A stretch of DNA of 64,000 nucleotides, taken from positions 1,376,001 to 1,440,000 of the forward strand of contig CP000068.1 in assembly GCA_000002445.1 (NCBI GenBank), given 5' to 3'. Origin of the DNA: Trypanosoma brucei. Taxonomy: Eukaryota. Made by a program: the position numbers. Below, one piece after another: positions 51,201 to 60,200 of this stretch (the stretch's first letter is position 1; every line of letters begins with the position of its first letter).

Positions 51201-54200
51201 TATATTTCTGCCCATAAGTGTTTGCCATCATTACTATGTGTGATGAAAAAAGTTTGGCAATACCACACAATGAGTCAGCATCTTCTTCTTTTTTCTGCCC
51301 CTGCCTCTACTTGTACATTCTTATAGCTGATAACTAGGATACGATACCAGATTAGGAACTACAGTCGCCACAATCATCATACGTTTTTGATCTTTCCACA
51401 TCTGTATGAAATACACTGCATAATTGGCTCCTTTTTTCTCGATGTATTATTTTCTCCTGTACGGTATTCTCCTGCATCCACTTGTTCAATTCCATATTCT
51501 CCCTTCTCTTTTTTATTCGCTGCTCCTATAACTGAAGATCACGTGGCGACTCTATATTTCCAGTGCGAGCGAACATAAAACTTTATGATTTTCACCTCAT
51601 TGGTCTTGTTTAAGATGACATCGTTTATAATTTCCTTGCTTGAGAGTGAGCATCATATATATTTCTCACTTTATTTTCTTCTATGAAATTCCTACCACTC
51701 GATTCTTACTATTTCACATTCACCCACACTAATTGCATCCTTGCTATTGTTTTTTCTCCTCTCGTTTTTTATTTTATTGCGGAAACCATTACTCTTATTA
51801 TAATATTCGTATATACACACACTCACAACACTCTCCTATCACTATCACTATGATTATAACTATTATTACCATAATTGGTATTCATAAAATAATTAGGGAT
51901 ATGAAACTCTCGTAACAGCACTAACATTTCACCCTATCAAATTATACTTTACATATATGAGGAACTTTCACGCCAAAATTTTAAATATTTCAAAATTACT
52001 AATATTTTCATTTATTCGAATATGTTCATCAAAAAGTGCTAAAATATATCAAAATAAAAATTATAAAAATTATAAACTTTATATAATTAAGCAAAAATAC
52101 TTAAATGTATAAAATATTACCCAAGTCACAAAAGCAGCAGCTATCAGAGAAAATTTCTTATTGAGGAGAATGCTGGAATCCTTGCAATCTGTTCCCTCCC
52201 ACTTACAATCCGTAGATTTGCAATCTTTCTCAGGTTTGCCTTTGCAGTTATCTGTTTTTGTTTCTGTTGTTTTAGTTTGTGCTGCGTGGGCGCCATTCTT
52301 TTTAACCTTTTCTGCATCTTATTTGCATCTTTTTTTAGCTTCTGTTTTATCAAAACTACATGCCGCAATTGCATGGCAAGCCGTTTCGTCTTTTATGGCG
52401 TAGCAGACGTCTTCTGTGACTGATGTATCGCATTTTAGTGGTTCTGATTGCTTTGCTAACGCTTTGACAAGCATATTTCTTGCAACCGTCCTTTTTTCTT
52501 TGTCTTTTTGTGTCTAGGTTCCTGTTAAAAATTGCTTGAGCTCTTTACGTAGGTTAGAAAATACGATCTTTTTTATAGTTATTTCTTTGGCTTCGCCGGG
52601 CATACATAAATAAGTGCCTTCAACTTTGGTGTCGTCGATCTAAGGGTCGGTGTCCTCTCCGAGGTTAGCTAGCTTTTTTAGAGTGGCGAGAGTGTTTTGC
52701 AGTGCTGACGTTACAGCGGTGTATCGGCTCTGTGTTTCCATTATTGCCGATGTCGACGGTTTTGTGTGTTGCGTGCTCCAAGCGTTATTGTTGCAAGCCG
52801 TTCCTGCTATATTGAGTAATTTGCCGGTTAGATACAGGGTAGCTTCGTTGCCGTTTTCATGCGCGAGTATTTCGTGCGTGTTTATCGTCCCACTTAAATG
52901 GCATTTACCGTTAGCATTTGTGTCAAGAGCAGGCGTCCCTCTGCCGCTTATTTCGCCCGTTAGAGCTGCCAGGCTTGGTCGTTTTGTTACCTCTGCGTCA
53001 CCGTGATTTCTCTGGATCTCGTTACCGATTACGCAGTTTGGTATGTCTTCCTTTGTTGCAACTTGGTTGTCACTGTTGGTTCGTGTCATGCAGTACGCTT
53101 CCCAGCGACAGTGTTTTCTTGGATTTGAAAAACATCTCTGTCGTTTCGCTTATTTGTCCCGCAAGTGTTGCCGTCGATAGGGCCGCTTTGATTAACCATG
53201 GAAGGTTTCCAGCGAGCGCTTGTTGTGCTTTGTCGATTTCCGAGCTGATATACATGTAGGCATTTAAGTTGTCGTCAGTATATTCAATTAGCTCTTTTTT
53301 AAACATGAGTTTTAGGTTTGTCGTCGTTGATTTTAATTTTGTCTTCGATTCTGGCATTTTTGTCACCATTGCCGTTGCAAAGTGGCCTATCTCTTTTAAA
53401 CTTTTGGCGATCCCACAGGCTAGGTTGAAGCCCGCTGCAGGCCACGATTCTTTAGTTCCACTGCTGCACTGACAATTGCGTGGAAACATATGACAAATTT
53501 CCCCTGGCGATTCCGGCCACCTCAACGCGGTGCCGGGGTCCAGTACCCAGTATCATCGGGGGAAGCCAAGAGCCAGCAGCGTTCCTTTCATGGGGAACAA
53601 TGCTTTGCTCCGGCTACGGCATCATACAGCACAAGGATCAGCAGCGTCTTGCTGGGACACCGTTTTTCATTTGTCGGTCCCTGGGCACGTGCCAGCGTAT
53701 CATCAGCAGTATCATCCGCACTAAGATGCTGCTGTCCGGTGATGTGGAAGAGAATCCCGGCCCGTCGTTGCGCGGAATGCAGTGGAACTGCGCCGGGCTA
53801 TCTCAAGGAAAGAGATTAGCACTCCACAAAACCCTTGTTGATGAGCGGATTGCCTTTTGTCTGTTGAGCGAGACAAGGATGACGCCTGGAGAGGCGGCTT
53901 GCTTTAGCGTTGCTGGCTACCAACATCACGGAATAGCTCGTAACTGCAAAGGAGGTGGTGTATCAATACTAGTGAGGGAGGACCCACCAGTCGAGACCGG
54001 TATGGCCGTTGTTGGTCGCATTGAACAAGTGCATGCAACAATTCACCTTGCACGTGGAACGGCGCTGACCGTCACGTCGGCATACATCCCACCAAAACAC
54101 ACCTTCACGGCAACTGACCTAGATACGCTTCTGACGACTGACGGTGCCCAGCTCATCGGTGCAGACGCTAACGCACACGCGTTGGCATGGGATCGCGCGA

Positions 54201-57200: not shown

Positions 57201-60200
57201 GATCAACCCGAGTGTGCCTCCACAGTGCCGATGGTGCAACCCGCAACATGCAGAGATAGGGCCAACAAAACAAACAGCCCCAACTGTTGCGACACGCACT
57301 CTTCAGAGAACCTCCGAACCGACCAAATGTACGGAATGTGATGCCACATACCAATGCCGCTCGAGTGCTGTAACGCAAATGGTAAACAAACATGGCTTTG
57401 TGCGAGCTGATGCCCTCCGGAGGATCAAATACGGCGATGCAACACCTGCAGTGGATATCCCCCCGGAGCCCTCTCCAGTGGTGGCGATCGTTCCTCTACC
57501 ATCGAGCACACGAGTCCCGATGAGACCGCAGGTGCTTCATTGTACCCTTCTGTGCCTCCCAATTCGCAGTGCCAGGCCGACTATTACACCACCTTAGAAC
57601 AATACATGGCATAGGCAGCAGTAGTTGCCGCGTGAAAAGGGGGCGAGAAAACGAGGACTCAGTGCAAGGAGATGGTAGAGCCCCAGCAGCGCCAGCCTCT
57701 CAGGATACACGGAAGCTGCCGTTTCAATGTGACCTATGTGAGGCGAGCTTCGGTACACGTTCTTCCCTGTCACTACACAAGAAATTCAAACATAAGAGCA
57801 TAGTGACGGAGGACGGTACCGTGGTGGTGGTGCAATTCCCTCGTAAGCGTGCCCGTGAGGGGAACGTTGACGTCCCCAGGGGAAGGCGAGGTGCAGTGTG
57901 GTGTGTGCCAAAAAGTGCTCAGTTGCAGGGACTCCCTCATCCGACACTGTAAGGCATTCCACAAAGGTGAGGGAGTCGAGCTTAAATGCAGCAAAAGCAC
58001 AAAATCGTGTGCCACGGATTCCCCGCATACAAACACATCCATGTTGGTGTGCCCGACATGCGGAAGGCAGTGTGCTAGCAAAACTGGCCTCACCCTACAT
58101 CAAAAGAAGATGCACGGTATGAAGGTAGAACGCGCTGTTATCAGCCAACGTGGCGACTGCGAAGAAACGTCGCTGCACCTGATGAGCTGTCCCGGTTTGA
58201 AGGAGTTACGTGTCAGGTTTGCGGTAGAAGGTGTGTGTGTGCAGGATGTATGTTTTTCTAAAATGCTGGCGCAGTTTCTCATTGCGGTTGAACGGAGCCG
58301 GCCACAGGTGAAGTCCTCACCTAAGGTAACAGTCATACAACCCACTCTCCCTTCTGCAACTTCCCCCCTTATTGCCGAGTGTGGAGCTAGCAGGAAAAGC
58401 ACCGGACGCAGGAATAGTCCAGGCACCCTCAGAGACAGAGAGGATATGCAGTCAACAAGCGACATAAACAGAAAGAGGGAGAGAATAATAAACGAATAAC
58501 AAAAATCAAAACAAAAGGATTGCTAATTGACATCTTTGGGAGAGTCTGGGGTAAGAGGCTTCTTGCCCCATCTGCTGTATTCCGTTCAACTGCGGAGCTA
58601 CAACAAAAATTATAGAGGTGTTAGGATGAATTAAAAGGGAGACTCTACCACAGTCGCCAGACCGATAGCATCTCAGGGCTCTACGGTGATGGCTGATAGC
58701 CGAGCCAGTGGGGGGAAACTCCCACGAAGGCACGAAGAAAATTTCAGAAATAGATGCTATCACTGAACTGACTTGGCGCTCACCGAACTCAGTTAATGGA
58801 ATGAGATTATAAACAATCTTCGTGCAAGTCTACTTAAAAGTTTGTGACACTGCCAAATGAAATATAAGTTATCTTGTAGATTCTTGGTAGAGCTACTGTT
58901 TTTCTTTGCTCGCTTTGTGTTGATCTGCGACCTCTTAAAATGCTATGTTTTACTTCGTACTCTCAGTAATGCAATTCACGTTTGATAAAGTACCATTACC
59001 TTTACGTTTGTGACGCGCTGCTTTGCTACAGGTTGTCACTTTAAATTTTATTTTTCGTTTTTTCTTAGCAAGCACTCCCCACTGGTAATCTTATAACAAT
59101 ACTATATATACACTGAGAAAACTCCCATATCATTGTTATATCATTGCTATTACTTGTAATATAATTTTATCTCATCTCTATAACATAAAGGAAATAAACT
59201 AAATTAGAATAGTACTCATTGTTCATATCGTAACACCCTACTATTTTACACCAATATGCCACAGTTACGCAGATTTTACGAAATTTAGATTTTCAAAAAT
59301 TTCACCAATTTACATTTTTTTTCAGGATTTTTTCTAAATTTATCAATTTTATCAAATTTAGAAAAAGTCCTGAAAAATTTTCCATAGCAAGAAAAACGCA
59401 AGCAAAAGAGGAACTTTATGAATTACAAAATAATTGTTTCCTGTGGTGTTTGTTTTCCCATCTTGCTTGTCTTTTTTCTCTTCTTTGGTCTCACTCGGTT
59501 TTGGAAAGCATCTTGGTGTTTTGGTTTCATCAAATTCACAACCCTCTTTTTGGCAAGGTCCTGTAGTTTCGTGTTGCTTGCATTTTCTAGATTTCGGCAG
59601 GTTTTGTGCCTTAGTTCCAGAATAGTTTTCTGCCGCAGCTTTCAATGCTTGGTCTAGGTCGTTTACCACGCTTAGCATTTTGAATGCTAAAATACTTCGC
59701 GCACTGTTGCTTTCTGGTATTGTGTTAATCTTGCGGCTGCGCTCATGGACTTGTGTCACGTCTATTATCTTCTCGTTTCCAATTGCTGTCAAGAGTTTGT
59801 CAATTTTTGTGCCTGACGGGTCTGCTTGTTCTTTCAATATTCTTGTGGCTTCTTCTTTTTTTTTTTTGGCCGCTGGCATTTCTGGTTCTTGTAACATCAG
59901 TAGTTTCTTCAGTGTTGCTTTGGCTTTTGCTTGAATGGCGGCACCTTTTAGTATGTCCGCCCCCTATGTTGTTGTTTTTACCAGCGTATCTGTGTTTAAG
60001 AAGCCAAGTCTTGGTGCGCTGCTTTCGCCAGCACTTTGGCGTCCCACTCATTTGTTGGATTAATGTTCTTTTGGTCGACCTGTGCTACGGTGTTGGTCGC
60101 TCTCAGCGACCATATGCCTTTTGCGAATTTTGCGCCGCTATCTTTCCCGTGCGCCGATGTTCCTGGCGTTCCCGCGTTGAAGAATCCATACTTTGTGGCA

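Follow-up and report, generated by a model that had tools for sequence, protein, structure and literature searches.

How did a complete ingi retrotransposon come to interrupt the very start of a variant surface glycoprotein (VSG) gene without the traces that an ingi insertion normally leaves at its ends, and was DNA lost in the process? This question is raised by a 64,000-nucleotide stretch of Trypanosoma brucei DNA (NCBI GenBank assembly GCA_000002445.1, contig CP000068.1, positions 1,376,001 to 1,440,000 of the forward strand), hereafter called the window, in whose numbering positions are given. Ingi elements are scattered through the T. brucei VSG archive, most of whose genes are pseudogenes. 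Tbingi is an autonomous non-long-terminal-repeat (non-LTR) retrotransposon of the T. brucei group and belongs to the ingi4 subclade of the ingi/L1Tc clade (Kimmel 1987, Murphy 1987, Bringaud et al.). Our analysis indicates, with a probability of about 0.8, that the locus consists of a dead full-length Tbingi in a subtelomeric VSG array, where it occupies, in antisense orientation, the extreme 5' end of a silent A-type VSG pseudogene. This figure covers the structural statement and not the mechanism by which DNA may have been lost.

To define the element, we compared it with two complete ingi copies from the T. b. equiperdum assembly GCA_003543875.1, obtained from the DNA around the protein P0009 and around a VSG homologue: L002 (element at 5513-10758) and L003 (6349-1094, reverse strand). 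The ends set by this comparison delimit a Tbingi of 5,244 bp on the + strand, at 53502-58745. Aligned with window positions 53502-58750, L002 5513-10763 showed 95.3% identity, and L003 6349-1094 was 95.7% identical to the window ingi end to end; over the full length, nucleotide identity to the two copies amounted to 95.3-96.1%. The first bases, CCCTGGCG, are common to the window ingi, L002, L003 and a further piece of ingi at window position 29155, and the last bases, …GAAGAAAATTTC (in longer form …CACGAAGGCACGAAGAAAATTTC), are common to the first three. Since the three copies share both their start and their end, the window ingi is full length. In agreement with these limits, the G+C content is 0.52-0.56 between about 53500 and 58750 versus 0.30-0.48 in the flanks, and the step falls at both ends of the element.

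A first-pass annotation of the window had called this a full-length ingi with a 5' junction at 53501/53502. The end-to-end match to L002 and L003 confirms the former, and three independent ingi copies starting with CCCTGGCG (window 29155, L002 and L003) support the latter. Its 3' end at about 58800 has to be moved, since the element body stops at 58745 and AGAAA comes next. Of the 3' end, the poly(A) and the target site duplication (TSD), which it had proposed to place by alignment to an ingi consensus, only the first could be located.

We then asked whether the element carries the marks of its family. Self-comparison of the window showed that 53502-53842 recurs at 29155-29496 (97%) and, on the - strand, at 8690-8479 (80%), with the same start base. 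A 5' signature of 76-79 bp is the hallmark of the ingi clade (PMC3820030, PMC4748587), and the Pr77 primer of L1Tc begins CCCTGGCTCAGCCGG (PMC4748587); in the window copy, the conserved signature lies at the exact 5' end. At the position of the downstream promoter element of Pr77, L002, L003 and L1Tc read CGTG, and the two ingi 5' ends of the window read CGCG (53526-53529 and 29179-29182), a difference that may be typical of a strain or subfamily or may be inactivating. The reverse transcriptase (RT) region is 93% identical to P0009, annotated as 'reverse transcriptase [T. brucei equiperdum]', and 49% identical to P0011, the 'Tbingi protein' of T. grayi. A protein search using the C-terminal open reading frame (ORF) of the ingi gave no matches, and an Rfam search for a 5' ribozyme family returned only weak, sub-threshold, chance microRNA-like matches on a palindrome at 59318-59377. 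Overall, the copy displays the 5' signature, the length, the domain set, the 2A-like motif and the 95-96% identity of Tbingi. What it lacks is only the TSD and the A-tail, both of which describe an intact insertion event. Since an A-tail belongs to the insertion event and not to the family sequence, its absence does not exclude membership in Tbingi.

Long elements of this family (4.7-5.4 kb) carry APE, RT, RNase H and zinc finger regions in one ORF. The window copy has this length and all of these regions, but its ORF is broken. Indeed, we found the four collinear + strand ORFs listed in the first-pass annotation (53480..55768, 55771..57597, 57569..57952 and 57849..58499) at exactly these positions. 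The frameshifts between them were mapped by aligning the window copy with L002 and L003, a change being called private when it is absent from both. The majority consensus of the three copies is a single open frame of 1,701 codons, and compared with this consensus the window ingi contains no stop codon derived from a substitution. The four ORFs are therefore the product of private indels of +2, +1, +1 and -2, and the window copy is unable to encode its own machinery, which bears out its description as frameshifted and non-autonomous. 2A-like sequences are reported for T. brucei Ingi (PMC3708506), and such a motif is found near the N terminus of the window ORF.

On the other side of the 5' junction, VSG homology begins at the junction itself and runs on the - strand, the ingi being antisense inside the 5' end of a VSG. 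The conceptual translation of the - strand below 53501 matched the T. brucei VSGs P0001-P0004 (E = 2e-109 to 5e-99, 63-67% identity), whose N termini read MQLKAIAQLFICFHAIVIAGSRTKESL…. The N-terminal domain was recognized through these homologues, of which P0001 carries PF00913; the direct Pfam match was weak (E = 0.0027, below the cut-off). For the C-terminal domain and its hydrophobic glycosylphosphatidylinositol (GPI)-signal tail, the tblastn alignment extends to residue 470 of P0003, and the homologues carry PF10659. At the nucleotide level, the pseudogene is 78% identical overall to L001 6023-7464. In the alignment to the P0003 gene (L001 6001-7413), homology reaches the junction, with 106/120 nt (88%) identical just inside it.

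This alignment locates the cut precisely. The first VSG base, 53501, aligns with coding nt 21 of the P0003 gene, and the VSG is thus cut after coding nt 20, in codon 7 and within the signal peptide, rather than about 20 codons into the gene as had been proposed. Translated in the true frame, the junction gives (K)FVICFHAIVSAA, which contains most of the signal peptide; this part is retained on the side of the 5' flank. A minus-strand ORF at 53070..53525 (MRWPESPGE ICHMFPRNCQCSSG…) does begin in the reverse complement of the ingi 5' end and continue into the VSG, as had been noticed, but the first VSG-derived residues of that ORF are out of frame. The residues 'ICHMFPRNCQC' belong to this out-of-frame reading, which meets the true frame only past a 1-nt deletion at codon 19-20, seen in the alignment to the P0003 gene. 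An ORF running from a transposon into a pseudogene can accordingly be in the wrong frame. The corrected description hence consists of exact element ends and a VSG cut at codon 7 instead of codon 20. With its start codon, signal peptide and open frame no longer intact, this VSG is a pseudogene, and it is one independently of the ingi.

We next examined the junctions for the footprints of insertion. Tbingi and TbRIME generate a constant 12-bp TSD and have an A-rich 3' end (PMC3820030, PMC2323293). The expected TSD copy, ATGACAAATTTC, directly precedes the ingi, and a search for a second copy with up to 2 mismatches found none near the ingi 3' end and no partner TSD in the window. A comparison by hand of ATGACAAATTTC with the initial 12 bp of the 3' flank gave agreement at 3/12 positions. 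A degenerate pair, GAAACATATGAC / GAAATAGATGCT, agreeing at 8/12 positions, was also considered and dropped, since by our own calculation such a pair is expected by chance once offsets are allowed. After the last base of the ingi body, the sequence reads AGAAA TAGATGCTATCAC…, and the window copy thus has no A-rich 3' tail. The comparison copies are not free of such defects: the TSD of L002 is degraded (8/12 by hand count), and the ingi of L003 has neither TSD nor A-tail.

Additionally, the 5' flank and the ingi body end in the same 7 nt, AAATTTC (53495-53501 and 58739-58745). We estimate the chance of a 7/7 match in a single fixed comparison at about 1e-4; in the 5' flank, AAATTTC aligns 5/7 with the VSG paralogue. 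The identity could be a coincidence, microhomology used in priming or repair, or the result of a template jump, but the missing VSG start is not explained by any one of these taken alone. Taken together with the missing A-tail, it might record a non-canonical integration, either by poly(A)-independent priming on microhomology with a 7-bp duplication or by an RT template jump onto the 3' end of a second ingi RNA. We consider this a long shot; if true, it would be a mode of retrotransposition not described for the ingi clade.

The start of the VSG would be expected beyond the 3' end of the ingi, and we searched for it in several ways. Three-frame translation of the - strand revealed that the roughly 250 nt next to the ingi 3' end contain no ATG, and tblastn with P0003 gave no match to its residues 1-10 between 58746 and 59400 (E<=10). 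When the start region of the VSG paralogue in L001 (30 nt upstream and 30 nt coding) was aligned to the 65 nt adjoining the ingi, the Smith-Waterman score was 8, against a null of 7.3 ± 1.7 (p = 0.36). A Hamming scan with the first 20 coding nt of the paralogue gave at best 8/20 beside the ingi and 12/20 anywhere up to the next VSG, the maximum in shuffled sequence being typically 11.5. Sensitive blastn of the 3' flank detected no similarity to the rest of the window, L001 or L002. Given the 88% identity just inside the junction, a conserved VSG start would have been obvious if present. The absence reported by the first-pass annotation is thus confirmed over 58746-59360, but the 'signal-peptide exon' that it had expected there was wrong, because most of the signal peptide lies on the side of the 5' flank. 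Furthermore, trypanosome VSGs are intronless, so that there is no displaced exon to expect. A VSG N-terminal segment accompanied by a normal TSD directly 3' of the ingi, which would speak against the interpretation, was looked for and not found, and the core interpretation therefore survives.

The spacer between the interrupted VSG and its neighbor is also unusual. Read along the - strand, the order is the next VSG (stop at 59358, about 610 nt from the ingi 3' end), its 3' untranslated region (UTR), a degenerate 70-bp repeat at about 59160-59085, about 335 nt of unique DNA, the ingi, and the VSG from codon 7 onward. The degenerate unit at about 59085-59160 aligns three-way with a canonical unit at window 51792-51839 and with L002. 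In seven other VSGs of the window, the start is separated from the closest 70-bp repeat upstream by 826, about 1,270, about 1,290, 1,667, 1,838, about 2,050 and about 2,290 nt; the corresponding figure for the P0003 gene is 830 nt. The distance of about 335 nt between the repeat and the ingi 3' end is thus the shortest spacer by a wide margin. In the literature, the distance of the 70-bp repeat from the VSG is given as about 1.5 kb (PMC4858185). The short spacer suggests that about 0.5-1.5 kb was lost along with the first 20 coding nt.

Another ingi-family insertion in the window offers a point of comparison. A B-type VSG is interrupted there by an antisense 5' piece of ingi, 342 bp long (29155-29496) and 97% identical to the complete element. 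This confirms the earlier claim that a second ingi-family insertion hit a separate VSG. The piece has a perfect 12-bp direct repeat, AGCTTGTCTGCT, on either side (29143-29154 and 29501-29512; 12/12), and its junction reads GAT|TAT|GAGC, in which (G)AGC is common to the TSD and to ingi positions 343-346. Reverse transcription cannot produce a piece that is truncated at its 3' end and yet retains both copies of the TSD, and an internal deletion of about 4.9 kb (plus the tail) must therefore have followed the insertion.

What, then, happened at the 3' junction of the full-length copy? Two directly oriented ingi or RIME copies, one at VSG codons 7-11 and the other higher in the array, some 335 nt below a 70-bp repeat, may have recombined into a chimeric element with deletion of the intervening DNA. 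Both flanks are array-type DNA with no TSD linking them, and the ingi family is dense here, with three elements in 64 kb. Recombination between ingi/RIME copies is, moreover, a documented cause of rearrangements in T. brucei (PMC2854126), and L003 is another ingi without a TSD that has RHS sequence on its 3' side only. A sliding comparison with L002 and L003 revealed no mosaic pattern, though with three copies its power was very low, and the partner TSD was not found within the window; we hold this explanation only tentatively. Somewhat more doubtful is a deletion coupled to the insertion itself, as the first-pass annotation had proposed, in which target-primed reverse transcription (TPRT) would have started from a nick in the VSG-upstream spacer at about 58751, the second strand would have been broken some 0.5-1.5 kb away in VSG codon 7, and no TSD would ever have been made. 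This would account for the absent TSD, the missing VSG start and the short spacer. Recombination between ingi/RIME copies after insertion, or a later microhomology-mediated deletion like that at 29155, would explain the missing TSD and the shortened spacer equally well. In addition, the DNA just upstream of 53490 does not look T-rich, unlike that at the 29155 site, which fits a non-canonical endonuclease site at the 5' junction. A TPRT 3' junction should nevertheless keep its A-tail, where we see only AGAAA, and from what is generally known of L1, a precise full-length 5' end at base 1 is less typical of aberrant insertions of long interspersed elements (LINEs). To our knowledge, deletion-type insertions are also undocumented for ingi, which counts against this possibility.

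Less probable still is a later deletion by microhomology-mediated end joining, running from the ingi 3' terminus into the flank and taking with it the A-tail and 3' TSD as well as the VSG start and some of the spacer. The neighboring 342-bp fragment at 29155-29496, whose junction shares (G)AGC, must have arisen in this way, and the AAATTTC of the ingi end and of the expected TSD could have served as microhomology. Loss between two AAATTTC copies would, however, cost only about 15-25 nt and spare the VSG start, contrary to observation, and the actual junction is without convincing microhomology. It is improbable that the junction is an assembly artefact in which flanks of two different ingi copies, one 5' and one 3', were joined through the 5.2-kb repeat. 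Such a mis-join would yield exactly these unrelated flanks without a TSD, but the flanks agree in polarity and array context (VSGs on the - strand, 70-bp repeat in the expected order), private indels run throughout the window ingi, and no positive sign of a mis-join was found. Very improbable, finally, is a clean insertion in which nothing was lost, with AAATTTC as a 7-bp TSD merged with the ingi 3' end and the VSG start either degenerate at 58751-58790 or already missing from a 5'-truncated VSG. The 7/7 identity, at about 1e-4 by chance, would be explained, and a loose gapped alignment (CAAG-T-CAGTT…GATAGC) resembles CAAGATGCAGTTGAAAGCGGTAGC. This gapped alignment is at chance level (p = 0.36), at most 8/20 positions agree without gaps beside the ingi, and 106/120 are identical immediately inside the junction; furthermore, the spacer would stay unusually short, and the Tbingi TSD is a constant 12 bp (PMC3820030).

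Judging from the family of the element, target-primed reverse transcription would have placed the ingi within the VSG start or a short way upstream of it. A rearrangement at the 3' junction would then have removed the A-tail, one of the TSD copies, the start codon and some 0.5-1.5 kb of the DNA upstream of the VSG; that DNA is missing there at all is suggested by the paralogues and the spacer lengths. We give even odds to a loss after insertion, either by homologous recombination with an ingi or RIME copy or by microhomology-mediated deletion, and regard it as slightly likelier than a deletion during insertion. Several points weigh against this account. A simple deletion model does not account for the AAATTTC that the 5' flank shares with the ingi 3' terminus. 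The size of the deletion, and even its existence, rests on paralogues and on the spacers of only seven neighboring cassettes, and VSG upstream regions may simply vary in length. Exact-protein look-ups with five ORFs of the window, by which an ingi-free allele might have been reached, gave no match. A mis-join across a 5-kb repeat is a further possible source of the junction. The coordinates of the features are collected in Table 1.

Table 1. Features of the ingi-interrupted VSG cassette and its surroundings (window coordinates)
Feature	Position	Strand	Basis or remark
Tbingi non-LTR retrotransposon body, full length	53502..58745	+	Alignment to L002 and L003; G+C step at both ends
5' 79-bp signature (Pr77 hallmark of ingi-clade retroposons)	53502..53580	+	Begins CCCTGGCGATTCCGG (CCCTGGCGATTCCGGCCACC); 97% to 29155-29496, 80% to degenerate element 8690-8479
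12 bp 5' of ingi, ATGACAAATTTC, expected TSD copy	53490..53501	+	
AGAAA, only possible A-tail remnant	58746..58750	+	L002 has A9 here, L003 nothing
2A-like ribosome-skipping motif DVEENPGP, near N terminus of ingi ORF	53741..53764	+	Seen in translation and sequence
APE-type endonuclease domain	53777..54394	+	Pfam Exo_endo_phos E = 5.7e-6, Exo_endo_phos_2 E = 7.6e-13; residues 100-305 of ORF 53480..55768
Reverse transcriptase domain	55196..55732	+	Pfam RVT_1 E = 9.9e-37, residues 573-751
RNase H domain	56569..56982	+	Pfam RNase_H E = 3.2e-6, residues 267-404 of ORF 55771..57597
C-terminal C2H2 zinc-finger region; fingers 57722-57793 and 58047-58115	57722..58115	+	Weak Pfam zf-C2H2 matches, ORFs 3 and 4
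Frameshift 1: private +2 insertion (AA), divides ORF 53480..55768 from ORF 55771..57597	55726..55727	+	Three-copy alignment
Frameshift 2: private +1 insertion (T)	57548	+	Three-copy alignment
Frameshift 3: private +1 insertion (C)	57874	+	Three-copy alignment
Frameshift 4: private 2-nt deletion, early termination at 58499	58478..58479	+	Three-copy alignment
A-type VSG pseudogene without coding nt 1-20; 2 frameshifts, 3 in-frame stops; C-terminal GPI-signal region kept	~52079..53501	-	Homologues, tblastn, nucleotide alignment
tblastn match, P0003 residues 11-24	53491-53450	frame -3	
tblastn match, P0003 residues 21-141	53462-53100	frame -2	
tblastn match, P0003 residues 142-470	53101-52124	frame -3	Three in-frame stops
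AT-rich unique 3' flank	58751..59084		Without VSG start, without TSD
Single degenerate 70-bp repeat unit, spacer upstream of interrupted VSG	~59085..59160	-	Local alignment to L001 70-bp repeat region, score 44 vs shuffle maximum 32
Next VSG upstream (A-type), C-terminal and middle part	59358..60562	-	ORFs; Pfam Trypan_glycop E = 6.7e-9

Other features of the window and of the comparison DNA were noted along the way. A near-perfect palindrome of 60 nt (59318-59377, 88.5% self-complementary) extends across the stop codon and 3' UTR of the neighboring VSG. At 22806-24264 there is a 70-bp repeat array of about 20 units, compared with the one degenerate unit of the ingi-interrupted cassette. Long runs of TAA/TGA-type triplets adjoin the 70-bp repeats upstream of several VSGs; besides the array, the positions noted for these features are 27508-27739, 37958-38105 and 48114-48223. 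On the - strand, the region at about 6900-9400 holds one or more degenerate ingi-related elements, with the 79-bp signature (80% to ingi) at 8690-8479. C2H2-like motifs are found in ORFs at 7173-8316, and an ORF just upstream, at 8983-9333, resembles the RNase H segment of ingi; the whole may be a DIRE/SIDER-type relic or a tandem pair. In T. b. equiperdum, L003 1-6349 (CM010673.1) comprises a full-length ingi with an RHS gene fragment 3' and VSG-array DNA 5' of it, possibly a recombinant junction between RHS and VSG regions.

The presence of ingi in subtelomeric VSG arrays and its role in rearrangements are established (PMC2854126). The suggestion that VSG arrays act as ingi sinks is accordingly existing knowledge and not a new inference, and with the biology already known, the locus matters little beyond annotation. 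An ingi in a VSG array is an ordinary feature of T. brucei, and this one is unusual only in that the normal footprints of insertion are missing from its ends. It gives the cell no function beyond 5 kb of dispersed homology and the inactivation of an already defective archive gene. By pairing an ingi without a TSD with an internally deleted ingi that has a perfect one, the window nevertheless provides a compact example of ingi in the deletions that remodel the archive.

How does the locus compare with known systems? It shares with Tbingi the 79-bp 5' signature, the length of about 5.2 kb, an identity of about 95-96% and the single long ORF with 2A-like motif, APE, RT, RNase H and C2H2 fingers, but differs in its four frameshifts and in having neither an A-rich tail nor a 12-bp TSD. 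As in the insertion-mediated and recombination-associated deletions of mammalian LINE-1, a LINE without a TSD is found with target DNA missing on one side; clade and host are different, and either of the two processes, or neither, may apply here. RIME and ingi insertions in RHS pseudogenes offer another parallel, in that an ingi-family element interrupts a member of a subtelomeric multigene family and a pseudogene results. Here, in contrast, the target is a VSG, and a preferred, recurrent insertion position is not evident. Compared with the silent VSG pseudogenes of the T. brucei arrays, the interrupted gene stands apart by its missing start codon and first 20 nt and by a 70-bp repeat only about 335 nt (plus the ingi) away. 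The gene is otherwise typical of the archive. It is 63-67% identical in amino acid sequence to named VSGs, including VSG 1153 and 1125.402, and it has a C-terminal domain with a GPI-signal tail, an upstream 70-bp repeat, and frameshifts and stops like most members of the silent archive.

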